Assembly: GCA_016709145.1 (NCBI GenBank)
Contig: JADJEK010000007.1
Span: forward strand, 35,630 to 99,629
Direction: 5' to 3'
Length of the DNA: 64,000 nucleotides
Source of the DNA: Planctomycetota bacterium
GTDB taxonomy: Bacteria; Planctomycetota; B15-G4; JADJEK01
Made by a program: the position numbers and the translations under genes
Part shown: piece after piece, positions 37,206-50,012 of the stretch
How the letters are laid out: every line of letters starts with the position of its first letter
Numbering within the stretch: position 1 is the first letter of the stretch
Notes under the pieces: generated by a model
What the model saw: only the letters and a program-made list of their open reading frames with translations
The model's database searches: none
Told to the model about the DNA's origin: nothing

Positions 37206-38152
37206 GCAGTCTCCGTCCGCGGAGCCACCGCGGTCGCGTCGGCCGTCGGTCGAGCGCGCTCCGCGCGCCAACGCCGATGCAGCCAGTTCCATTGGTCCGG
37301 CGCACGCCGGATGTGCTTCCCGATGACGTCGGCGATGGCCTGCGTCAATCGTGCGACCTCCGCCTCGCGCGGAGCCTCGGTGTCCGGCAACAGCGCGGGC
37401 TCGAAATCGAGGCGGTACTTCGGCGAGTCGTCGACGCGGATCCCGAAGCCCGGCAGCAGCGCGAAGCCGAAGCGCGCCGCGAGTTCGGCCGGCGCGCGGA
37501 AGGCCGAGGCCGGGTGGCCGAGGAAATCCACGACGAGGCCCTGACGACCGGCATGCTGATCGAGCAGCATCGCCACGCAATCGCCATCGCGCAGCGCCCG
37601 CACGATGCGCGGCAGCCCGCCGTCCTTCGGGATGATCGAGCGCACCCAGCGCGAGCGCTCGCGCAGCAGGAACGCATCGATCTTCGGGTTGTCCATCTGG
37701 CGGCCCACGACGTGCAGCCGCATGCCGAGCGGCTCGCCGGCCGCGGCCACGACCTCCCAATTGCCGAGGTGCGCCGTGAACACGATGACGCCCGTGCCGC
37801 GCGCGAGGGCCGCGTCGACGTGCTCGCGCCCGTGGATGTCGACGACCCCTTCCAGCCCGCGACGCGCGATGAGCTTCGGCAACAGAGCGAACTCGACGCC
37901 GACTTTCAGGAAGTGGCGGAAGACTCGGCGCACGAGGGCGCGCGGGTTCGGTGCGGAAGGATCCCCGCCGTAGACCTTTGCCACGTTCGCCAGGGCCACC
38001 TCCCGATGGCGCCGATCGAGCAGGTACGCCAAATCCCCCAGCCGATCGGTCGCACGCAGAGCCCAATGCGGCGGCAACAGGCGCAACAGGCCCAATGCCA
38101 GCCGTAGGGCGCCGTACTCGAGGTGGGCGACCAGCGGAGATTTCTCAGCCAT
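37202..38152 (-). CDS. lpxL: Lipid A late acyltransferase (LpxL/HtrB family)
   Basis: HLGNWE, DQH, FLGHPA, PDQWNWLHRRW; ATGA overlap with hldE. Confidence 0.85.
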   Translation of the reverse strand: MAEKSPLVAHLEYGALRLALGLLRLLPPHWALRATDRLGDLAYLLDRRHREVALANVAKVYGGDPSAPNPRALVRRVFRHFLKVGVEFALLPKLIARRGLEGVVDIHGREHVDAALARGTGVIVFTAHLGNWEVVAAAGEPLGMRLHVVGRQMDNPKIDAFLLRERSRWVRSIIPKDGGLPRIVRALRDGDCVAMLLDQHAGRQGLVVDFLGHPASAFRAPAELAARFGFALLPGFGIRVDDSPKYRLDFEPALLPDTEAPREAEVARLTQAIADVIGKHIRRAPDQWNWLHRRWRAERARPTADATAVAPRTETA

Positions 38153-38251
38153 GGGAGTGCTCGGTCGAGCGGCGGACGGCCAGAACGGGTCCCGCGTGGT
38201 TCAGCCGCACGACGAATGTTTCACGAAGGGGAACTTTTCTGAACTGTAAAC

Positions 38252-38279
38252 TTGCCACCGAAACGTGGCGGCCTAGATT
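38252..38279 (+). promoter_or_regulatory. sigma70-type promoter TTGCCA-N16-TAGATT with no downstream plus-strand CDS
   Basis: Hexamers at 38252-38257 and 38274-38279. Confidence 0.55.
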
Positions 38280-38285
38280 GTCACG

Positions 38286-38526
38286 CGACTTCGCGACACG
38301 ATCGTTTCGCTTCCCGCGGACGCATCGGGCGACGACAAGGATGCGAAGAGATCCTCGTCCGTCGTGCGCGCGAGTCCGAGCCAGACTCGTAGCCAGACAA
38401 ATAGCCAGAGGGTTTCCTTCAACGGAGTAAAACTCTTCTCCCCTTCTTCCCCTTTTCCCGGAGTTCCCTTCTGGCTTCTTCAACGACGACACCCGCGCCC
38501 CTCGATCGAGGGACGCGGGTGTTTTC
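38286..38526 (+). ncRNA. Candidate small RNA (about 240 nt), family not recognised
   Basis: Plus-strand promoter plus plus-strand terminator inside a minus/minus intergenic region; several predicted stems and a pyrimidine-only loop. Confidence 0.45.
38489..38526 (+). terminator. Intrinsic terminator, plus-strand polarity
   Basis: acacccgcg-c-ccctc-gatc-gaggg-a-cgcgggtgt followed by tttc; no U tract on the minus strand. Confidence 0.7.
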
Positions 38527-38686
38527 ATGTTCGGCCTCGAACGGTGTCGCGTCGGGCCCGACACGAACGCTGAATCCACGCTGACGAACTGGCCATGCGA
38601 TCGCGCCTCGCACGCGCGGTCCGCGGCGCGTGGATTCCCCGACAGGCTCGTCGCGCCCCCTGCGTGCGCAGCGCCGGCCGACCCCA

Positions 38687-41600
38687 TCAGGCGACCTTCT
38701 CGAACTCCTCGATCTTGATGCCGATGCGCTTCGAGCAGCCCGGCTCCTCCATCGTCACGCCGAAGATGATGTCGGCGTAGCTCATCGTGCGCTTCGAGTG
38801 CGTCACGATCAGGAACTGCGACGTGCCGATGAAGTCCGCGAGCAGGTTGCAGAACCGCTCGGTGTTGGCTTCGTCGAGGGCCGCGTCGACTTCGTCGAGG
38901 ATCGCGATCGGCGCGGGCTTGGCCTTGAACAACGAGAACAGCAGTGCCACCGCGGTCATCGTGCGCTCGCCGCCGGACAGCAGCGTGATCGAGCGCGCTT
39001 CCTTGCCGGGCGGAGCGGCGATGATCTCGACGCCGGCATCGAGGATGTCCTGCCCCTCCTCGAGCCGCACGTCGGCGCGGCCACCGTGGAACAGCTTGCG
39101 GAACAACGCCTGGAAGTGCTCGCGCACCGCGTTGAACGTCTCCTCGAACTGCGCACGCGAGACGTTGTCGAGTTCCTTGATCGTGGCTTCGAGGCTCTTG
39201 CGCGCGGCGTCGAGGTCTTCCTGCTCGCGCAGGATGAACGCGAGGCGCTGCTCTTGCTCCTCGAGTTCATGGATCGCGTCGAGGTTGACGTTGCCGAGGC
39301 GACCGATGCGATCGCGGACCTGGCGCGCTTCTTCTTCGACCTGATCGAGCGGCGGAGCTTGCGTCGGGTCGAACGCCGCGAGGCGCTCGTCGATGTCGAA
39401 GTTGAGCTCCTCGCGCGCACGATCGCGCACGCCGTTCAGGCCGAGTTCGACCTCTTGCTCCTTCAACTGCAGACCGTGCAGGCTCTCGCGCGCGGTCTCA
39501 CGCGCCGCGGCGGCGGAGTGCGCAGCGGCGCGCGCGCGCTCGAGCGCTTCCTGCGACAACACGCGGCGCTGGTCGAGCTCGTGCAGGTGCACGCCGAGCT
39601 GAGCTCGCTTCTCATGCAGTTGGTCGATCGTGATGCGCAACTCGGCCGCGACTTCGTGCGAACGCGCGAGTCGATCCTGAGCCGCGGTGCGCTCGGCGTC
39701 GAGGCGGTCACGCTGCTCGACGCGCTCGGTCACCGAACGTCGGATCGCCGCGCACTCGGCCAACAGGCCGCGCACGCGCTCCTGGCAGCGCACGACGTCC
39801 TGCGCGGCGGCAGCGGCCGCGCTGGCCGCTTCACGCGCCACCCGCTGCGTGTCCTCGGCCGCGGCCGCGAGTCGCGCGCGCTCGGCTTCGAGCTGTTCAC
39901 GCAACGTGCGCGCGGCAGTCAGTTCCGCGTCGAGCTGCGCCCGGCGTTCACGCGTCTGTTGCTCTTCGCGCTCGACGCCGAGGCGCTCCCCGGCGCTGAC
40001 GGCGAGTTCGCGCTGGAAATGCTGCGCGCGCTCACGCAGGCGGTCGCCCGCCGAGCGATTCTGGAACAGCCCTTCCTGGACTTCCTGCCGACGCGCTTCG
40101 GACTCTTTCACGAGCATCGCGGCTTCGGCGCACTCGGCGCTCGCACGCGCTTCGTCCTGCTCGAGTCCGACCAACGTCGTCGACACGCGCTCGACCTCGA
40201 GCGTGACTTCATCGCGCTCGGCGCGACGTTCGACGAAGCCGAGCGTCTTCTCGGACGGCCGACCCGAGACCGCGCCGCACGCATCGAGGCGTGCACCGTC
40301 CCGCGTGACGACGAACGCACCACTGCCGAGTGCCGAGAACAGCGCGTCCTCGCCGTCGACGAGTCGGGCGTGGCCGAGAACGGCGCGCAGCGTCGCTTCG
40401 AGTTCCGGCGCGGGCTTCAGGCCGGACAGGAGCGGTTCGCCGACGTCGTCGGTGCCCGTGCGCGCCGGCGACGGCGACCCGAGCACGAGGAACTGCACCG
40501 CGCCACCGTTGTGCTGGCGCAGGAACTGCAGCGCAGCGCGCAACGCCACGACGTCTTCGACCACGATCGCCGAGGCCAACGAGCCGAGCGCAGCGTCGAT
40601 CGCGCGCGCACGGCCGCGCGGCGCCGCGACGAGTTCGGCGAGCAAGCCGCGCACGCCGCAAAGCGTCGCATCGGACTTCGCCGCCTTCAGCAGTTGGCGC
40701 ACGCCGACGTCGACGCCCTCCATGTTCTCGATGATGCCGTCCAACGTGTCGCGGCGTGAGGTGAGCGCGGCCAAGCGCGCGCGGGTCTCGCCGATCTCGC
40801 GACGCAGGCGCGTCTCGCGTTCGAGCGCGAGACGCTGGCGCTCGCGCGCCGATTCCAGCGTCGCCGTGCTCTGGCGCGCTTCCTCGTCGAGGCGGGACTG
40901 GTGGTGCTCGAGCTCCGACGCCTCACGACGCGCGCGCTCGAGCAGGATCGAGAGTTCGGCTTCGCGGCGCACGAGACGCTCCCGCGCCTGTCGCAGACCG
41001 CGCGCACCCGACTCGAGCGCTGCCGACTCGTTGGACAGTCCGACTTCCGTGCGCGCACAGCGCTCGAGGTCCTTCGCCGCCGCGTCGACCGCGCGCGCGT
41101 GCTCGTGCTCGGCCGCCCTGGCGTGGCCGGCAGCTTCGTGCGCTGCGATCGACCGTTGCTCGGCGCCCACGCGCTCGGTTTCCTCCGTGGTCGCTGCGAG
41201 TTCGAGGCTCGCGAGCTCGCCCGCGCGGCGCGCGGTCTCTTCGACCAAGTGGTCGATCTGTTGGGTCTTGCTCTGGATCTCTTGTTCGGCTTCCGCGCCG
41301 CGCTGACGCGCGTTCTCGAGCCGCTCCGCATGCGCGTCGAGCGACGCGCGCGCTTCGGCCTGCTCGGTCTGCAAGCGCGCGCTCTCGTCGCGCAACAGCG
41401 AGACCTCGACGTCGGCGGTCTCCACCGCGGCGGACGCGGCGGCCAGTTGCGTTTCGGATTCCCGATCGAGAGCGTGCGCCGCTTCGAGCTCCTGCGCGAG
41501 CTGCGTCTTGCGCTCGCGGAACTCCGTCGCGAGCCGCAGGTACTGCACGGTGCGCAACTCGGTCAGGCGCCCGGACAACTCCACGTACGACTTCGCGCGG

Positions 41601-42229
41601 CCGGCCTGGATGCGCAGCGAACGCACTCGCGTCTCGAGTTCGTTCTGGAGGTCCTTCACGCGCAGCAGGTTCTGATCGACCTTCTCGAGCTTGCGCAGCG
41701 CTTCCTTCTTGCGCACACGAAAGCGATGGATGCCCGCGGCTTCCTCGAAGATCGCTCGGCGATCGACGGCGTTCGCCTGCAAGATCGCATCGATGCGCCC
41801 CTGCTCCAGCACGGCGTAGGCATTGCTGCCGAGACCGGTGTCGTAGAACAGCTCGCGCACGTCCTTCAGACGCGCGACTTGGCGATTGATGAGGTACTCG
41901 CTCTCGCCGCTCTTGTAGAGGCGACGCGTCACGGCGACCTCGGTCATGTCGACGCGCAGCTCTCCGCCGCTGTTGTCGAACACGAGCGTCACTTCGGCGA
42001 AGCCCATCGCGGGGCGCCGGCCGTTGCCCTTGAAGATCACGTCGGCCATCGCGTCGCCGCGCAGCGCGGTCGGGCGCTGTTCGCCGAGCGCCCACTTCAC
42101 GGCGTCGACGACGTTCGACTTCCCGCAGCCGTTCGGGCCGACCAGACAGGTCACGCCCTTGCCGAGTTCGAACTCGGTGCGTTCCGCGAACGACTTGAAG
42201 CCGTGGATCTCGATGCGCTTCATCAGCAT
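38687..42229 (-). CDS. smc: Chromosome segregation protein SMC
   Basis: MKRIEIHGFKSF, Walker A GPNGCGKSN, coiled coil-hinge-coiled coil, LSGGE, ILDEVDAALD. Confidence 0.96.
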   Translation of the reverse strand: MLMKRIEIHGFKSFAERTEFELGKGVTCLVGPNGCGKSNVVDAVKWALGEQRPTALRGDAMADVIFKGNGRRPAMGFAEVTLVFDNSGGELRVDMTEVAVTRRLYKSGESEYLINRQVARLKDVRELFYDTGLGSNAYAVLEQGRIDAILQANAVDRRAIFEEAAGIHRFRVRKKEALRKLEKVDQNLLRVKDLQNELETRVRSLRIQAGRAKSYVELSGRLTELRTVQYLRLATEFRERKTQLAQELEAAHALDRESETQLAAASAAVETADVEVSLLRDESARLQTEQAEARASLDAHAERLENARQRGAEAEQEIQSKTQQIDHLVEETARRAGELASLELAATTEETERVGAEQRSIAAHEAAGHARAAEHEHARAVDAAAKDLERCARTEVGLSNESAALESGARGLRQARERLVRREAELSILLERARREASELEHHQSRLDEEARQSTATLESARERQRLALERETRLRREIGETRARLAALTSRRDTLDGIIENMEGVDVGVRQLLKAAKSDATLCGVRGLLAELVAAPRGRARAIDAALGSLASAIVVEDVVALRAALQFLRQHNGGAVQFLVLGSPSPARTGTDDVGEPLLSGLKPAPELEATLRAVLGHARLVDGEDALFSALGSGAFVVTRDGARLDACGAVSGRPSEKTLGFVERRAERDEVTLEVERVSTTLVGLEQDEARASAECAEAAMLVKESEARRQEVQEGLFQNRSAGDRLRERAQHFQRELAVSAGERLGVEREEQQTRERRAQLDAELTAARTLREQLEAERARLAAAAEDTQRVAREAASAAAAAAQDVVRCQERVRGLLAECAAIRRSVTERVEQRDRLDAERTAAQDRLARSHEVAAELRITIDQLHEKRAQLGVHLHELDQRRVLSQEALERARAAAHSAAAARETARESLHGLQLKEQEVELGLNGVRDRAREELNFDIDERLAAFDPTQAPPLDQVEEEARQVRDRIGRLGNVNLDAIHELEEQEQRLAFILREQEDLDAARKSLEATIKELDNVSRAQFEETFNAVREHFQALFRKLFHGGRADVRLEEGQDILDAGVEIIAAPPGKEARSITLLSGGERTMTAVALLFSLFKAKPAPIAILDEVDAALDEANTERFCNLLADFIGTSQFLIVTHSKRTMSYADIIFGVTMEEPGCSKRIGIKIEEFEKVA

Positions 42230-42233
42230 GGAT

Positions 42234-44246
42234 TCATGCCTTTCGCCGGAGGGCGACGAACTCACGCAAGAACAGGACTCGATCGGACGCGGTCGCGTGC
42301 AACGCCGGCAGCGTCGTGGGAGAAGTCAGTGCGACGCGCAGGCCGGCCTCGACGCGCGCGGCGGTCGCCGGCTCGCAGTCGTCGGCCACCCCGAGCACGC
42401 CAGCGCCATAGACGTACGCGCGGCCATCGTGCGCCACGCCGTGCAGGTCGCGGCCGCGCGCATGGCGCGCGAAGTCGGTCTCGCCGAAGCGCGCGAGCAC
42501 GTCCGCATCATCGGTGATACCGGTGGACACGGCGAGCCTGCGATCCTTCGCGCCGGCGGCGACGCGGGCGACGACGCGATCGATCAGCGTGCGCACGAAC
42601 GCCAGCGCGCGTTCGCTGGTCGCCGCCGATTGATCGAACGCGATGCGGCACGCGGCGTCGAGTCCGGCCAATGCGATCTCGTGGCGCGGCGTGCCGTGGT
42701 GCACTCCCAGCGCACGCAGCGCGTCGCGCGGATGAGCGACGCCGACGAGTCGCTCGAGGTAGCGCGCACGCGCCTCGCACGCGACCAGGGCAGCGTCGAC
42801 GGCTTCGAGCACGGACGCGATCACCATGTCGGGATCGAATCGATGCGCGCGGAACGCGGCTTGCGCGACGTCGACGTGGACGCGCGCGGCCAGCGGCGCC
42901 GCCAGTGCGCTCGCGAACAAGGAATCCTCGGCAAGCGTGAATCGCACCGAGCCGGGCACTCCCTCGTGCACGACCGCCTGTTCGACCACGCCCCACGCCA
43001 ACTCGAGGTCGGTCGAGAGCTCGAGCACGCACGTGGGCACGGTCGCGAGCTCGCGACGCGTGGCCAACTCACGCAGCCACGCCAACGTGAACTCGTGCCA
43101 GGCGTCGCGCGCGGCATCGCGTTCCAGACCGCGCGCGCGAGCGAGGTCGAGCGCGACCGTCGACGGTGCCAGCGGCAACACCGCGGCGACACGCGCCTCG
43201 AGCGCGCTCGAACGCGGTTCGGTCAGCGCGGCGACCAACCGACGCGCGACGATCGCCGGCGCGAACCCGTTGGCGATGCGCGGCAACAGAGCCTTGTCCA
43301 AGCCGCGCACGCGAATGCACTCGGACGCGACGTGCCCGGCCTCGCGCACCCACGTGCGCCACGCGAGCACGGCGTCGTCGTCGGCCATCGTCGTGGCGAT
43401 GCCCGCGAGGTCGACGTCGATCTCCTGCATGCGCGTCGGCGCCGCCAGCCCGCCGATGTGCAGCGTTCCGGCCATGTGCAGATCGGCGACGTCCTGCGGG
43501 ACGACTTCGAGCAACGCGTACTGCGTCCAGAGATTCGCCGCGACCGCGTCGTGCAGTGCGCGCCCCGACAACGACATCGCCCGATCGGCGTCGAACCCGG
43601 CTCGTGCCAATCGATCGAGGTCGAACCGCGGCAGGCCGAGCACGGTCTGGCGATTCAGGAACTTGTCGTGCCCGCGCTCGAACAGCTCGTTGTCGACCAG
43701 CGCTCGGATCAGCGTCGTCGAGATCCGGGTCAGACCGGAACCGAACACGCGACGTTCGACTTCGCCGGCGATTTCTTCCGCGAGCGGCGGCGGCAACTCG
43801 GCTTCGGTGACGAGCGCTTCGACGATCTTCGCCTTCGACCACGTCGCGATCGTGCCGTGTGCGCGCGCGTCGACCTTCGGTCCGGACGCCGCCGCATTGG
43901 CGCCACCGAGCGCGGGTCCGCGCTCATCGCGCCGTACTCGCAGCGAGGCGCGGATGCGATTGCGGCGATCGCGCTCCAGGATGTAGGCCTTCGCCGTGCG
44001 CGCGTGCCCGGTCTCGATCAGGACCTTCTCGATCAGGTCCGAGATGTCGTCGATCGTCGGAGTCTTGTCCTTCCATTCACGCTCGACGTAGAGCGCGACG
44101 ACCGACGCGAGTTCTTCGGACAGCAGTCGATCACCGCCGCCGACGGCACGCGCCGCGCGGTACAGCGCGTCCGCGATCTTGCCTTGGTCGAACGGGACCT
44201 CGCGACCGTCGCGCTTCTTCACGCGGATGGAGGACACGGGCGTCAT
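42234..44246 (-). CDS. Degenerate class III ribonucleotide reductase (NrdD-like) with two ATP cones; predicted catalytically inactive, 670 aa
   Basis: ATP cone 1 (VKKRDGREVPFDQGKI...IEKVLIETGHARTAKAYIL), cone 2 (WSKAKIVEALVTEAEL...ISTTLIRALVDNEL), NrdD-like segments QYALLEVVPQDVADLHMAGTLHI and IALAGLDAAC; no CxxC Zn finger and no RxxGY loop. Confidence 0.75.
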   Translation of the reverse strand: MTPVSSIRVKKRDGREVPFDQGKIADALYRAARAVGGGDRLLSEELASVVALYVEREWKDKTPTIDDISDLIEKVLIETGHARTAKAYILERDRRNRIRASLRVRRDERGPALGGANAAASGPKVDARAHGTIATWSKAKIVEALVTEAELPPPLAEEIAGEVERRVFGSGLTRISTTLIRALVDNELFERGHDKFLNRQTVLGLPRFDLDRLARAGFDADRAMSLSGRALHDAVAANLWTQYALLEVVPQDVADLHMAGTLHIGGLAAPTRMQEIDVDLAGIATTMADDDAVLAWRTWVREAGHVASECIRVRGLDKALLPRIANGFAPAIVARRLVAALTEPRSSALEARVAAVLPLAPSTVALDLARARGLERDAARDAWHEFTLAWLRELATRRELATVPTCVLELSTDLELAWGVVEQAVVHEGVPGSVRFTLAEDSLFASALAAPLAARVHVDVAQAAFRAHRFDPDMVIASVLEAVDAALVACEARARYLERLVGVAHPRDALRALGVHHGTPRHEIALAGLDAACRIAFDQSAATSERALAFVRTLIDRVVARVAAGAKDRRLAVSTGITDDADVLARFGETDFARHARGRDLHGVAHDGRAYVYGAGVLGVADDCEPATAARVEAGLRVALTSPTTLPALHATASDRVLFLREFVALRRKA

Positions 44247-44713
44247 CCGTCGGCCTCCTTCTTCTTCTCCAGCAACGGCCGCAACTCGTCGAGGAACTCG
44301 GCGACGTCCTTGAACTCGCGGTAGACCGACGCGAAGCGCACGTACGCGACGTGGTCGATCTCCTTCAGCGCCGTCATCACCTGCTGTCCGATGAACTTCG
44401 ACGAGACTTCCTTGTCGAACATCTCGTGCAGTTGCTGCTCGATGCGGTTCACCGATTCCTCGAGGCGATCGATGGAGACCGGGCGCTTCTCGCAGGCACG
44501 CAGCATCCCGTGCATGACCTTGGCCCGGTCGAACGCGACGCGCGAGCCGTCTTTCTTCACGACCATCAGCACCGGCTGCTCGACCTTCTCGTAGGTCGTG
44601 AAGCGCTTGTTGCACTCGAGGCACTCGCGGCGCCGACGGATCACGAACGCGTCCCCGGAGGTCCGCGAGTCGATGACGCGATCGTTGTTCGCGGAGCAGT
44701 ACGGACAGCGCAT
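44243..44713 (-). CDS. nrdR: Transcriptional repressor NrdR
   Basis: MRCPYC..VIDSR..IRRRRECLECNKRFTTYE, ATP cone VVKKDG, D.VAYVRFASVYREF; ATGA overlap with the NrdD-like gene. Confidence 0.97.
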   Translation of the reverse strand: MRCPYCSANNDRVIDSRTSGDAFVIRRRRECLECNKRFTTYEKVEQPVLMVVKKDGSRVAFDRAKVMHGMLRACEKRPVSIDRLEESVNRIEQQLHEMFDKEVSSKFIGQQVMTALKEIDHVAYVRFASVYREFKDVAEFLDELRPLLEKKKEADG

Positions 44714-44919
44714 GCGCGTCGTTGCCTTCGGTGCCTTACGGGGCGACTTGAAAACTTGCGTCGACTCGGGATCTCGGTCGGCGCCGAGGCCCCATGCGCG
44801 CGGCAGGCCGCGCGCGACGGGATCGCCCCTCGCGGACCGTGCCCTCGGAAGCAGGCCGAACGGTTCCTCGCGGTCCCATTCCCGCGTCGTGAAACGAGTT
44901 CCGCCCCAAAGGCGCGGCC

Positions 44920-44974
44920 GGTGTATCACGCAAGCGATTGTGTGTCAATGCAGCCGGACCCCCAAATCCAGGGG
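44920..44974 (-). promoter_or_regulatory. Promoter TTGACA-N17-TACACC (with TGn extension) overlapped by two NrdR-box-like sites 31 bp apart
   Basis: -35 at 44943-44948, -10 at 44920-44925; boxes at 44928-44943 (12/16 to acaCwAtATaTwGtgt) and 44959-44974 (8/16). Confidence 0.55.
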
Positions 44975-45021
44975 GTACGGCGACGTTTCGTGAGGTCGGC
45001 GTCAGCGCGGCCCGCGGCCGC

Positions 45022-46845
45022 TCATTTGGCCGGCGCGGGAACCGCGGCCGGGAGCGGGAAGAAGCGCTTGCGGATCACCTTCGACTCGAAGATGCCATAG
45101 AGGCTCGACACCAGCATGTAGAGCGAGAGACCGGCCGCGTAGTTGTAGAACATCACGCCGAACACGATCGGCATGATCAGCATGATCTTCTGCTGCTGCT
45201 GCGCCTGCGGGTCGGACGGCTTCGGCGCCAGCGACATCTGCCACAGGAACGCCGCGGTCGCGAGGATCGGCAGCACGTTGAAGTTGATGTCGATGCCGGG
45301 GATCACGAACAGGGCGTCGGGCAGTGACAGGTCGTGGATCCAACCGACGAAGCCGGCGTGGCGCAGGTCGATCGACGAGCGCAGGATCTGGAACATGCCG
45401 ACGAACACCGGGATCGTGATGAACGACGTCAGGCAGCCCACCACCGGCGGGCGCACTTGGTGCTCCTTCAGCAGCTTCATCTGCTCCTGCGCGAACCGCT
45501 GCGCGTTGTCCTTGTAGCGCTCACGCAGTTGGTCGAGCTTCGGCTTCAGGACCATCATCTGGTTCGAGTACTTCTGCATGCTCACTTGCTGCATGCGCGT
45601 GATCGGGAACATCGACACGCGCAACACCAGCGTGAGGAACACCACGGCCACACCCCAGTTGCTGGCGAGTCCGTGGAAGAAGTTCAGGATCACGAGCAGC
45701 AGCTTGTTGATCCAGCGGAAGCTCTCCCACGAGCCGTAGTCGAGTTCGATCAGCGGTTCGAACGACGCGAGGTCCTCGGCCTTGAACAAGTCCTTGGACT
45801 TGGGGCCGGCGAAGAAGCGCATCGCCTTCGAGTCCACGCCGTCCTCGCGCGGGATGCGCATGAAGACTTGCAGCTCGGCCGACACGGCCTCCGCGTCGTC
45901 GCCCGCGGCGGCGCGCAGCGCCCCGCCGATCGCGTCCGCGTCCGTCTCCGGGCGCAGCATCGCCGCGAAGTAGAGATTGCCGGCTCCGACGAACGCGATC
46001 TTGTTCTGCTCGCCCGCCGCGACGTCGCGCGGCGTTTCGTGGAGGCTCGACGCCAGATCCGCGGTGACGGTGGCCTGGTTGAAGCGGTCGACGACGCCGT
46101 AGAACGCCTTCGGCGGATCCGTGAATTGGCCGCGCTCGACGTCCTTCACGCCGTCGGCCGCGGTCATGAGCAGGTCGATCGCGTCGCCGCGATGGGCGAC
46201 GTCGCGACTGCCGACCTTCAGGGTCACCGCGAGCCAATGCTGGCCCGGGCGGCACTCGATGCGCTTTTCGAATTGCATGCCATCCGGCGCGTCGTAGCGG
46301 AACACGACCACGCGGTGTCCCGCGTCCGAGGTCTCCTCGGCCACGTCCCACACCACTTCGTCGAGCTTCCAGTGCGCGACCGAGCCCGGTCGCACGACCT
46401 CACGCAGCGCCAGCGCCGGCCGACGGACCTTGCGCGGGTCGTCTTGCAACAGCCGCACCCAACCGCTCGGGTTGGAGTGCTTGGCGATCTTCGCGTCGAG
46501 GTTCGCGAAGTAGTTCTTCAGGAACACCTGGCGCAGGCCGGCACCGCGGTTCGTGAACTCGACGCGGAGCGCGTCGTTCTCGAACGGGGCGATCTCGCGT
46601 TCGGTCGCTTGCGTGGCCGTGAAGGCGCCGGATTCGACGGCGGCCGGGTTCGCGGGCTGTCCCGACGCGGCTGCGCCCGCTGCCGGCGCGTTCGGAGCCC
46701 CGCTGGAGGTCTCGTTCGCCGAAGTCGCGGTCGGAGTCCCCTCGCCCTTCGCGACCGGCGGCGGCGGCGCCAGGAACTTGAAGTACACCAGCGTGAACAG
46801 AATGCACAACGTCAGCGTGACGAAACCACGGCGCTCCACGCGCAC
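45022..46845 (-). CDS. yidC: Membrane protein insertase YidC
   Basis: N-terminal TM, periplasmic domain (FTNRGA; YFAA), NWGVAVVFLTLVLR, LKPKLDQLRERY, GCL, WIHDLSLPD, AGLSLY. Confidence 0.95.
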   Translation of the reverse strand: MRVERRGFVTLTLCILFTLVYFKFLAPPPPVAKGEGTPTATSANETSSGAPNAPAAGAAASGQPANPAAVESGAFTATQATEREIAPFENDALRVEFTNRGAGLRQVFLKNYFANLDAKIAKHSNPSGWVRLLQDDPRKVRRPALALREVVRPGSVAHWKLDEVVWDVAEETSDAGHRVVVFRYDAPDGMQFEKRIECRPGQHWLAVTLKVGSRDVAHRGDAIDLLMTAADGVKDVERGQFTDPPKAFYGVVDRFNQATVTADLASSLHETPRDVAAGEQNKIAFVGAGNLYFAAMLRPETDADAIGGALRAAAGDDAEAVSAELQVFMRIPREDGVDSKAMRFFAGPKSKDLFKAEDLASFEPLIELDYGSWESFRWINKLLLVILNFFHGLASNWGVAVVFLTLVLRVSMFPITRMQQVSMQKYSNQMMVLKPKLDQLRERYKDNAQRFAQEQMKLLKEHQVRPPVVGCLTSFITIPVFVGMFQILRSSIDLRHAGFVGWIHDLSLPDALFVIPGIDINFNVLPILATAAFLWQMSLAPKPSDPQAQQQQKIMLIMPIVFGVMFYNYAAGLSLYMLVSSLYGIFESKVIRKRFFPLPAAVPAPAK

Positions 46846-47622
46846 CTACCTTCCGACTTTCAGCCGCTCGGCGAGGTAGCTCGGCAGCACCTTCGTCGCG
46901 AGGATCTTGGTCATTGCACTCTCGACGTCGTACGGCACACGTCGGAACGTGACGGTCTCACCGTCGAACAGCACGTAGCTCGCGCGCGGGTCGCCATCGC
47001 GCGGTTGCCCGACCGACCCGATGTTCACGAGCGCTTTCTCGTTCGGCTTGCGCGTCCAGCGACCGTCGCAGTCCTTCGGCGACACGAAGCCGCCGTTCTC
47101 GACGTAGACACCGGGCACGTGACTGTGGCCGACGAAGCACCACGGGCGATCCTGCTTCGCGAACACGCCCTTCATCTTTTCGGCGTTCTTCACGTCGGCC
47201 GGCAGCATGTACTCGCGGATCGGATCGCGCGGCGAGCCATGCACGAACAGCGCGTCGGCGGTGCGATGCTCGACCTTCATGACGTCGGACAGCACGCGCC
47301 AGTATTCGAAACGCTCCTCGCGCGAGACCGACGCATCGTTGAGTTGGTCACGCGTCCAGTCGAGCGCGGTGCGCGCCTTCTCGTTGAAGTCCTCGGCGAA
47401 GTACAGCACGGCTTCTTCGTGGTTGCCGCGCAGGCAGAACTCGAAGCGCTTGACCTCGGCCAGCGCCTGGCGCGGTTCGGGTCCGTAGCCGATCACGTCG
47501 CCGAGGCAGGCGATCCGCGTCGCGCCCTGGGCCGCGATGTCGTCGAACACCGCGCGGATCGCATCCATGTTCGAGTGCAGGTCGGAGATCAGCGCGAGCA
47601 CGGCGATCCTCGTCGGGGCCAA
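46846..47622 (-). CDS. Metallophosphoesterase (calcineurin-like, YfcE/MJ0936 type)
   Basis: SDLHSN, LGDVIGYG, GNHE, VHGSP, GHSH, NIGSVGQPRDGDPRASY. Start uncertain (47601-47655). Confidence 0.9.
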   Translation of the reverse strand: MAPTRIAVLALISDLHSNMDAIRAVFDDIAAQGATRIACLGDVIGYGPEPRQALAEVKRFEFCLRGNHEEAVLYFAEDFNEKARTALDWTRDQLNDASVSREERFEYWRVLSDVMKVEHRTADALFVHGSPRDPIREYMLPADVKNAEKMKGVFAKQDRPWCFVGHSHVPGVYVENGGFVSPKDCDGRWTRKPNEKALVNIGSVGQPRDGDPRASYVLFDGETVTFRRVPYDVESAMTKILATKVLPSYLAERLKVGR

Positions 47623-47713
47623 CAGGCGGATCCCAGCTCGAGCCCGGTGACGCACTCGGGATTTCGGGACCGTTCGCGAATCGGACCGTTCTAGCCGAGC
47701 GCGCCGGCTCGCG

Positions 47714-48451
47714 TCAACGCGCCCCGATCAGCCCACGTTCACGCAGGGAGACGAAGCCGGCGTCCCCCAGAACCACGTGGTCGAGCAGCGGGATCCCCAC
47801 CAACTGCCCGGCTTCGACGAGCCGCGCGGTGATGTCGACGTCCTCGCGGCTCGGCGTCGGATCGCCGCTCGGGTGATTGTGGGCCACGACGACTGCGGCC
47901 GCGCCTTCCCGGATCGCGGCGCGGAACACTTCGCGCGGATGCACGATCGACGCCGTCAGCGACCCCTGCGAGACCATCTCCTCGCGCACCAAGCGGTGCT
48001 TGCCGTCGAGCAACAGCGCGACGAACATCTCCTTCGACTGGTCGCGCATGCGCCCACCGAGCACGCGGACGACGTCCTGGCCCGAACGGATCGCGAGGCC
48101 GCGCAGCCGCGGCTCGTGGTGCAGGCGCCGCGCCAATTCGAACGCGGCGACCAAGCGCGCCGCGCGTGCGGGTCCGACGCCGCGTTCGGCGGTCCACTCT
48201 TCGAGCGTGCGGTGCGCGAGACCGCGCAGCCCGCCAGCCCGCGCGAGCAGCACGCGCGCCAACTCGCTGACATGCACCGACCGCGCGCCGGTGCCGAGCA
48301 ACAGTGCCAGCAGTTCGTCCGCGGCGAGTGCCGCGACGCCCGCCGCGTGCAAGCGTTCGCGCGGCAGCAGCTCGCTCGCGATGCTCGGACCATCGAGGCG
48401 GCTCGGCGCGTGCGCGCCGGAGTCGCGGGAATCGTCGGCGGCTGGCGCCAT
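47714..48451 (-). CDS. radC: RadC / UPF0758 JAB-domain protein
   Basis: PRERL..ELLALLLGTG, HhH (GVGPARA), KEMF..VHPREVF..HNHPSGDPTPSRED..LLDHV. Confidence 0.95.
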   Translation of the reverse strand: MAPAADDSRDSGAHAPSRLDGPSIASELLPRERLHAAGVAALAADELLALLLGTGARSVHVSELARVLLARAGGLRGLAHRTLEEWTAERGVGPARAARLVAAFELARRLHHEPRLRGLAIRSGQDVVRVLGGRMRDQSKEMFVALLLDGKHRLVREEMVSQGSLTASIVHPREVFRAAIREGAAAVVVAHNHPSGDPTPSREDVDITARLVEAGQLVGIPLLDHVVLGDAGFVSLRERGLIGAR

Positions 48452-48509
48452 GGGGACCCTCCGCGACGCACGACGCGCGCGCAGCTCCCGGGTTACCGCC
48501 GCGCCGACC

Positions 48510-49691
48510 TCATTTCTTGACGAGCAACGCGTCGCCGATCACCGCGCGATCGCCCGAATCGGCGCCGTCGGCGAAGTCGACTTCGACCACGAGTTCGCGC
48601 GCGCCCGCAAGAACGAGCGCGGGCATCTCGACCGCGGGATCGCCGCCGCGCAGGACCGGACTGGTCCACGACGGTGTGCCGTCGACGACGAATCGGAATT
48701 CGATCGAACCCTTCGCATCCAGCGCGAGCACTTCGTCGGACACGCCGACGACGGCCTCGAGACGCTCGTAGCGGCCGTCGAGCGCGTACGTGAGGCGCGT
48801 GCGCGCGTGCAGTCCGAGACCCTTCGTGAACGTCCGACCACCGACGACGAGCTGCGCCCCGGTCACACTTCGATCGCGTTGCCACGGGAACAGGAAGTCG
48901 TTGGCGCCGCCGAAGTACGGCGCCTGCGAGACCGCGGTCGGAGTCAGGTCGCTGAGGTATTCGGCGCGCGCGGCGCCGAGGCGCAGTGCGACCACGTGTT
49001 CGAGGGCGATCGACAGCGAACGCGCGAACACCGTGGCGACCTCGACTCGAGTGCGGTCGAGACCGAGCAGGTCCGCACGCAGCTCGCTGCCGCCCACGGC
49101 GACCAGCGCGACCGCAAGCGCGGGTTGGAACGGAGCCGACTCGTCGACGTGAGCGATGACCACGCGTTCGACGTCGTCCAGCGCGAGCGTCACCGCGCCG
49201 AGATCGCCGTCGACGCGAACGCCCGCGGCCCCCACCGACGTCACGGTTCCGCTCAACGCGTCGCCACTCTTGCGCGTGACGTGATCGAGTTCGTCGTCCG
49301 AGCGTGCGGCGATCGCGGCTCCCCCGCGTGACACCGACCCGACCAAGTCGAGCGGCAGACGCAGCACCCCGAACTCGGTCGTCTCGATCGCGACCTCGTC
49401 CTCATCGGCGGCGGCCAGAGCTCCGACCAGCCGCGAACCATCGACGAGCACGACGTCCCACGCCGCGCTCGCGCGTTCGCGCGGCGCGGAGAACTCGACG
49501 CTGACCACGTCGGTGAGCGGCAGGGTCACGGCTTCGCCACCGGTCAATCGCAAGGCGTCCTTGCCGGCGAGTGCCACGGCCTCGGCGGTCAGCCGACGAC
49601 CGTCGACGCTGCGCACGGTGACTTCCGAAAACGCCGGCTCAGCCACGATCGAGCCGAGCAGGACCACGCCGAACACACGGGAACGAAGCAT
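48510..49691 (-). CDS. Secreted protein with two SH3-like repeats and C-terminal NPCBM/NEW2 carbohydrate-binding module
   Basis: Signal peptide; YLSDL..F.KGLGLHA..LTYALDGRYERLEAVVGV..FVVDG. Confidence 0.82.
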   Translation of the reverse strand: MLRSRVFGVVLLGSIVAEPAFSEVTVRSVDGRRLTAEAVALAGKDALRLTGGEAVTLPLTDVVSVEFSAPRERASAAWDVVLVDGSRLVGALAAADEDEVAIETTEFGVLRLPLDLVGSVSRGGAAIAARSDDELDHVTRKSGDALSGTVTSVGAAGVRVDGDLGAVTLALDDVERVVIAHVDESAPFQPALAVALVAVGGSELRADLLGLDRTRVEVATVFARSLSIALEHVVALRLGAARAEYLSDLTPTAVSQAPYFGGANDFLFPWQRDRSVTGAQLVVGGRTFTKGLGLHARTRLTYALDGRYERLEAVVGVSDEVLALDAKGSIEFRFVVDGTPSWTSPVLRGGDPAVEMPALVLAGARELVVEVDFADGADSGDRAVIGDALLVKK

Positions 49692-49780
49692 CGAAAACCT
49701 CCGGCGACGCCGCCAACACGACATTCTGTCCACCCGACCCCGCGGCCGCCAGCGCCGAGACGACAGCCTGACACACCGAG

Positions 49781-49880
49781 TGCGTCATCCCTAAAATCCT
49801 GCCAATGCGTCACTTGACCACCCTGTGACGCGTTCTGCCGCAGCGCACACGGACCGATCCGTCCCGGCATCGGGTTTGCT
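49781..49880 (+). promoter_or_regulatory. Putative sigma54 (-24/-12) promoter with upstream GCGTCAC-N11-GTGACGC palindrome, ahead of groEL
   Basis: CGGCATCGGGTTTGCT at 49865-49880 has GG and GC at the canonical spacing; inverted repeat at 49807-49831; extra TGCGTCA at 49781. Confidence 0.45.
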
Positions 49881-50012
49881 CGACCTCGCGCGTTCCTTCG
49901 GGAACTCCACAGAACGTCATCCCGCCGGTCACGCGGGGCCCTGGACCCAGAGCCTCTCGCACCGGCGGCCGTCATTCCCAATAGGTCCTCAGATCATCGA
50001 GAGGGAGAGATC

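Follow-up and report, generated by a model that had tools for sequence, protein, structure and literature searches.

Paired NrdR-box-like sites over the nrdR promoter of a planctomycete, a predicted operator of an nrdR-X-smc operon

The window, by which we mean the whole stretch of 64,000 nucleotides that was analysed, carries on its minus strand the genes yidC, nrdR, a gene that we call X, and smc, in this order of transcription (Table 1). The encoded NrdR, a repressor that senses dNTPs, is intact; it matches solved NrdR structures with E = 1e-42, and its Zn-ribbon is close to those of NrdRs solved in complex studies. The start codon of X overlaps the stop codon of nrdR by 4 nt in the sequence ATGA. 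Against the family models, the X protein gave only a sub-threshold match to NrdD.

Table 1. Features of the nrdR promoter region and neighbouring genes, in window coordinates; positions in parentheses are given in the direction of the minus strand.
Feature	Position	Strand	Description
yidC	45022..46845	minus	60KD_IMP and YidC_periplas domains; upstream neighbour, outside the operator, ends 48 nt before box 2
NrdR box 2 (promoter-distal)	44959..44974 (44974-44959)	minus	CCCCTGGATTTGGGGG; upstream of box 1
Linker between boxes	44944..44958	minus	15 bp; holds 5/6 bases of the -35 hexamer
Predicted -35 hexamer	44943..44948 (44948-44943)	minus	TTGACA; prediction only
NrdR box 1 (promoter-proximal)	44928..44943 (44943-44928)	minus	ACACAATCGCTTGCGT; fills the -35/-10 spacer
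Predicted extended -10	44920..44928	minus	TG-A-TACACC; 17 nt past the -35 hexamer
nrdR	44243..44713	minus	156 aa; Zn-ribbon and ATP-cone (PF22811 and PF03477); TIGR00244, 3.6e-60
X	42234..44246	minus	670 aa; N-terminal ATP-cone(s); body recognised by no family model
smc	38687..42229	minus	SMC_N and SMC_hinge domains; ATG 4 nt past the X stop codon

The genome encodes one recognisable ribonucleotide reductase (RNR), the class II enzyme NrdJ, which is encoded on contig C12, matches TIGR02504 with 661 bits, and lacks an ATP-cone; no NrdD was found in the genome above the family threshold. A whole-genome scan for ATP-cones returned two matches in X, one strong and one weak, and none in NrdJ, so that the only ATP-cones of this genome are those of NrdR and X.

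Upstream of nrdR, a 57-bp segment contains two NrdR-box-like sites that read acgcaagcgattgtgt (44928-44943) and cccccaaatccagggg (44959-44974) on the plus strand. In minus-strand order, the segment runs ACCCCCTGGATTTGGGGGT-CCGGCTGCA-TTGACA-CACAATCGCTTGCGTGA-TACACC. The starts of the two boxes are 31 bp apart, which leaves a linker of 15 bp, and the final A of TTGACA is also part of box 1. The TACACC hexamer lies at 44925-44920, with the TG that precedes it at 44928-44927. A first-pass annotation of this DNA had proposed the two boxes together with a perfect -35 hexamer and an extended -10 around box 1. Re-reading of the sequence returned the same coordinates, sequences, and spacing for both boxes, and the description of the predicted promoter holds as well, though the -10 hexamer is weak (3/6, with no T at the last position). 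As a generic sigma-70 promoter scan did not list the nrdR promoter, the call is based on the -35 hexamer, the TG motif, and conservation rather than on a good -10. The predicted -10 would imply a transcription start near 44913, and with the nrdR ATG at 44713, the promoter sits ~200 nt upstream of the coding sequence.

The resulting leader (window positions 44713-44913, minus strand) is ~200 nt long in the genus versus ~60-160 nt in most relatives, and parts of it are kept within the genus, such as GCCGCGCCTTTGGGGCGGAACTCGTTTC just after the -10. Folding of the ~214-nt leader gave z = -0.82, which is not significantly structured. A riboswitch at this position was considered and rejected: the Rfam scan of positions 38000-50000 gave only a sub-threshold match to NiCo-AnGGAG (plus strand, 44925-44986; 22.6 bits versus a gathering score of 64.5; E = 0.46), which we treat as chance. 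The long leader could add a further layer of control.

In terms of sequence, box 1 matches the classical consensus acaCwAtATaTwGtgt at 12/16 positions and box 2 at 8/16, the latter being the same count that the annotation had given. Positions C4, A6, A8, T9, T11, and G13 of the NrdR box are highly conserved, and C4 and G13 are critical (PMC13584703). Four of these six are present in box 1 (C4, A6, T11, and G13), with C and G in place of A8 and T9, and five are present in box 2 (C4, A8, T9, T11, and G13), with G in place of A at position 6. The half-sites, counted by eye, are complementary at 6/8 positions in box 1 and at 5/8 in box 2.

The annotation had raised two caveats, the central CG of box 1 and the poor consensus match of box 2, and both are softened by comparison with published binding data. 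Conversion of the central AT to CG in both boxes (A8C/T9G) changes the KD only marginally (82 nM with the central CG versus 46 nM for S. coelicolor NrdR, and 65 versus 91 nM for E. coli NrdR), such that a central CG barely affects NrdR binding (PMC13584703). The mutant box used in that work, ACACAACCGCTAGTGG (PMC13584703), almost equals the natural box 1 of the window's genus. Heterologous binding by NrdR is also on record (PMC13584703). An A6G substitution in both boxes weakens binding 4- to 10-fold (PMC13584703); here, G6 occurs in one box only, in one half-site of box 2, and the second caveat is softened by the five of six critical positions that this box holds. Because box 2 has G6 yet keeps C4, A8, T9, T11, and G13, the putative pair is best taken as a strong box combined with a second one that is weakened yet plausible. 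Asymmetry of this strong/weak kind is common at natural operators.

Conservation of the sites was investigated in an alignment of 29 nrdR upstream regions from the order, all oriented to nrdR. Of the 29 promoters, 27 share a single alignable block, made up of a hexamer resembling a -35, then box 1, then a -10 region of the GATAC/TGnTA type; the sequences flanking it cannot be aligned. Relatives keep a TTGAC- or TTGGAA-type hexamer directly 5' of box 1 and TGnTA or GATAC directly 3' of it, and AT-rich relatives carry near-textbook boxes, such as ATACAATATCTTGTAT. When the mean matrix score of the 27 promoters is taken by offset from box 1, the sole outlying peak is found at -31 (-3.5 bits versus a background of -19.8, sd 4.6). 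By our own count, a partner at -31/-32 that scores ~0 bits or better is present in ~17-19 of ~25 distinct lineages, where the per-position background rate for such a score is 0.45% and the orthologous promoters are not statistically independent. The best-kept part of box 2 is its proximal half, ATTTGGGG or TTTAGGG. Within the genus, box 2 is identical in 3/3 genomes and the sequence just upstream of it has diverged, such that the footprint starts at the distal edge of box 2; substitutions in box 1 are confined to positions 7 and 12, both of which the consensus leaves degenerate.

In the AT-rich family f5 (G015, G018, G021, G024, and G027), no partner was detectable at -31/-32. The nrdR promoter spacer of this family holds a near-perfect box 1, and possible partners in G018 are visible at the unusual distances of +36 and -42. 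Among the more distant members of the phylum, paired boxes precede nrdR in G043, G045, G058, and possibly G047, and many others are without them. The annotation had named a lack of conservation in orthologous promoters as evidence against its proposal; since the paired sites are kept across the order, with box 1 in all but two of the promoters and the second box at -31/-32 in most lineages, this objection falls away.

The same annotation had suggested a lineage-specific matrix from RNR upstream regions, and such a matrix was built from nrdJ. Upstream regions of nrdJ were gathered from 28 same-order relatives and from this genome, and in all of the genomes of the order examined (29/29), an NrdR-like box pair 31-32 bp apart precedes the gene. 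The nrdJ pair of this genome, CCCCAAGATGTCGACT-N16-CACCAACAGGTTGTGG, lies outside the window (G000 contig C12:86740-86787, with boxes at 86740 and 86772), and its first box is positioned within a TTGCCA...TATCGT spacer. Across the window's family, the first of the two nrdJ boxes occupies a promoter spacer, as in TTGTCA-N16-TATCTT, the same architecture as at nrdR. The matrix is symmetric and draws on 49 distinct nrdJ-upstream sites from other genera only, with frequencies of 0.98 for C4, 0.92 for A6, 0.92 for T11, and 0.98 for G13; it defines a lineage-specific NrdR motif for Planctomycetota of approximately CCCCwAnnnnTwGGGG. In a matrix from nrdR box 1 sites alone, box 2 scores ~0 bits; the nrdJ-derived matrix is preferred because it is the fairer and more independent test.

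With the nrdJ-derived matrix, box 1 scores 12.7 bits, a value reached by 21 of 5.9 M genome positions, and box 2 scores 6.3 bits, a value reached by 1,393 of 5.9 M positions. We estimate the chance of a site of the grade of box 2 at an allowed spacing from box 1 at ~0.002. A scan of the 11.8 M pairs of positions spaced 31 or 32 bp apart in the 5.9-Mb genome, with a threshold of ≥14 bits for the sum and ≥3 bits for each box, returned five pairs, of which the nrdJ promoter ranks first and the nrdR pair second. The box pair over the nrdR promoter is more than chance, and the strong targets in the NrdR regulon would here number exactly two, nrdJ and the nrdR-X-smc operon.

Several other high-scoring pairs (C1:1027165, C2:72054/72086/72116, C4:279462, and C2:548899) are treated as probable chance matches, their neighbours (HEAT/hydrolase, FG-GAP, Rce1-like, and inositol-phosphate synthase genes) being unlinked to replication; only C4:279462 survives the stricter scan with the nrdJ matrix. 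This third-best pair of the genome (G000 contig C4:279462-279540; locus L037, ~1962-2040) is possibly a triple, ACGCTGGGGATTGTAG-N15-ACTCAATCCATTGGGT-N16-CCCCCCTCTCCTGTTT. Its sites lie directly upstream of, and overlap, the point at which a 697-aa ORF encoding an Rce1-like CAAX protease domain is likely to start, and may represent chance or an extra NrdR target.

Other readings of the two palindromes can be weighed against these data. Box 1 alone might be functional, with box 2 being a stem-loop at the 3' end of yidC that acts as a terminator or stabiliser, or a UP-like or other promoter element, that resembles an NrdR box by chance. Box 2 indeed lies inside a palindrome with 6-bp arms, ACCCCC-N7-GGGGGT, the sequence of which (ACCCCC-TGGATTT-GGGGGT) forms a perfect inverted repeat, and it begins 48 nt past the yidC stop codon; its score of ~0 bits in the box 1-derived matrix, its 8/16 match to the classical consensus, and family f5 with no partner at -31 can be rationalised in the same way. 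However, the stem is not followed by a T-run and was not picked up by the terminator scan, which weakens the case for a terminator; a box-like element at exactly -31/-32 is also observed in lineages whose upstream gene is not yidC; and the best-kept half of box 2 fits the TwG-type half-site of nrdJ, as seen in ACCCCCTATATCTAGGGGC at nrdJ in G025 and G034. Furthermore, binding by NrdR depends on the presence of the two boxes and on a 15-16-bp linker, and isolated single boxes are unbound by NrdR (PMC13584703), such that a conserved box 1 implies a partner box. We consider a solitary box 1 improbable. That the palindromes are bound by a regulator other than NrdR is a thought raised by the lineage motif, CCCCwA...TwGGGG, which is more GC-rich than the textbook NrdR box, but it is one that we regard as very improbable: the motif and the 31-32-bp spacing precede exactly nrdJ and nrdR, the expected loci of NrdR, as the two top pairs, C4, A6, T11, and G13 dominate the lineage matrix, and the boxes of AT-rich relatives are near-textbook.

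The reach of the operator into smc is a separate question. In 38/38 order-level genomes that have both genes on one contig, smc follows nrdR on the same strand at a distance of 0.2-2.3 kb, and it does so in 7 more distant members of the phylum as well (both hand tallies). X is located directly downstream of nrdR in relatives across the phylum; a search of contigs with X itself returned only two genomes, both of the same genus. From the 4-nt overlap, the 4-nt gap, the lack of a terminator-like site in the scan, and the kept gene order, we infer that nrdR, X, and smc are co-transcribed from the box-bearing promoter, and co-repression of smc, as the annotation had proposed, is likely on the basis of this gene organisation. 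NrdR might instead repress nrdR and X only, with smc transcribed mainly from a constitutive promoter of its own in the 3' part of X. Every cell cycle requires SMC, and internal promoters are frequent for essential downstream genes; an internal smc promoter within X could exist, and in G055 and G054, smc is ~4.5-5 kb away from nrdR. On the other hand, the gap between X and smc is similarly tight across the order, smc in G016, where no X homologue was detected, starts ~190 nt after nrdR, and a generic scan, one that also missed the nrdR promoter, found no promoter-like or terminator-like site between nrdR and smc. A mainly independent smc promoter appears rather unlikely to us, and less so than the two readings above. 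Read-through from yidC is possible. As for X, which the annotation had kept in the NrdR regulon as an NrdD-like gene, the analysis confirms the second gene of the putative operon as encoding an ATP-cone protein with no more than a sub-threshold match to NrdD.

Our preferred reading is that the 57-bp segment is, with high probability, the NrdR operator of an nrdR-X-smc operon, through which NrdR would regulate its own synthesis and couple smc and the ATP-cone protein to the dNTP pool. In this proposal, which is drawn from the DNA sequence and follows the cryo-EM and biochemical model of NrdR (PMC9110341, PMC12051234), a tetramer of NrdR loaded with dATP and ATP would occupy the two 16-bp boxes, whose starts are separated by 31 bp, about three helical turns. 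Box 1 lies between the predicted -35 and -10 and box 2 directly precedes the -35, so that bound NrdR would exclude RNA polymerase from the nrdR promoter. A drop in dATP relative to ATP would release NrdR from the DNA and derepress the operon, since the ATP-only forms of NrdR do not bind DNA in that model (PMC9110341, PMC12051234). Derepression would allow transcription of nrdR, X, and presumably smc alongside that of the class II RNR gene nrdJ, which has the same kind of box pair. As a predicted result, NrdR would be negatively autoregulated, and both the ATP-cone protein and SMC, a condensin, would be coupled to the dNTP pool. Both NrdR binding and its dependence on nucleotides are predictions at this locus. 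Autorepression of nrdR is very likely, given the conserved box pair over the promoter and the packing of the operon, and NrdR "often" controls its own gene (PMC9110341); the matrix rank and the conservation of the pair support the annotation's claim of autoregulation through tandem boxes.

A wider proposal, to which we give about even credence, is that NrdR is more than a repressor of RNR genes and heads an ancient, conserved, self-repressed operon that places SMC and a degenerate, NrdD-like protein with two ATP-cones under the dATP/ATP ratio, in the order and in several distant lineages. If this is true, the capacity for chromosome compaction and segregation would be transcriptionally coupled to dNTP supply, and the ATP-cone protein could add a second sensor of nucleotides to an organism in which NrdJ, the sole RNR, lacks an ATP-cone. 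The locus adds, from a little-studied phylum, a comparison-backed predicted NrdR operator in which one box has a central CG by nature and its partner is degenerate, and these are the kinds of deviation that recent mutational work has probed. If co-transcription is true, expression of SMC would be linked to the dNTP pool, a connection that we did not find described (searching the literature for NrdR and smc jointly gave no paper that names smc among the targets of NrdR), and X would be placed firmly under nucleotide-responsive control, which helps to frame hypotheses on its function.

The operator described here is reminiscent of that of the S. coelicolor nrdRJ operon, its closest known counterpart. 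Both consist of two 16-bp partially palindromic boxes with a 15-bp linker that overlap the promoter, here a predicted one, and in both cases nrdR is the first gene, the organism is of high GC content, and the box arms are GC-rich. The S. coelicolor boxes are TCCCCACATCTAGTGG and AGCCCACAAGTTGTGG, as inferred from the T9A mutant row (PMC13584703). Either operator would lead to negative autoregulation with dATP and ATP as the sensed signals (PMC9110341); in S. coelicolor, NrdR represses its own operon. The active class II gene nrdJ is co-transcribed with nrdR in S. coelicolor. In the present genome, nrdJ is unlinked and has a box pair to itself (C12:86740 and 86772), and the genes that come after nrdR encode an ATP-cone protein without a recognisable catalytic domain and then SMC. 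The central CG of box 1, the G6 of box 2, and the ~200-nt leader also set the present operator apart from that of S. coelicolor.

Compared with the canonical RNR operators, those of E. coli nrdAB, nrdHIEF, and nrdDG and of Listeria nrdDG (PMC12051234, PMC13584703), the present operator shares the box consensus, the presumed need for two boxes, the spacing of three helical turns, and the overlap with the RNA polymerase site, here that of a predicted promoter. It differs in that the operon encodes no active RNR and in that the boxes of this lineage are richer in C/G at positions 1-3, at positions 14-16, and at the centre. A precedent for non-RNR targets also exists: in 2005, Rodionov and Gelfand reportedly noted NrdR boxes upstream of replication genes other than those for RNR. 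As in those cases, the NrdR regulon would be extended to genes of DNA metabolism through paired boxes; unlike them, the link here runs through an operon and is kept across an order. The type of operator is already known, and the conserved link between NrdR and smc is the modestly new part.
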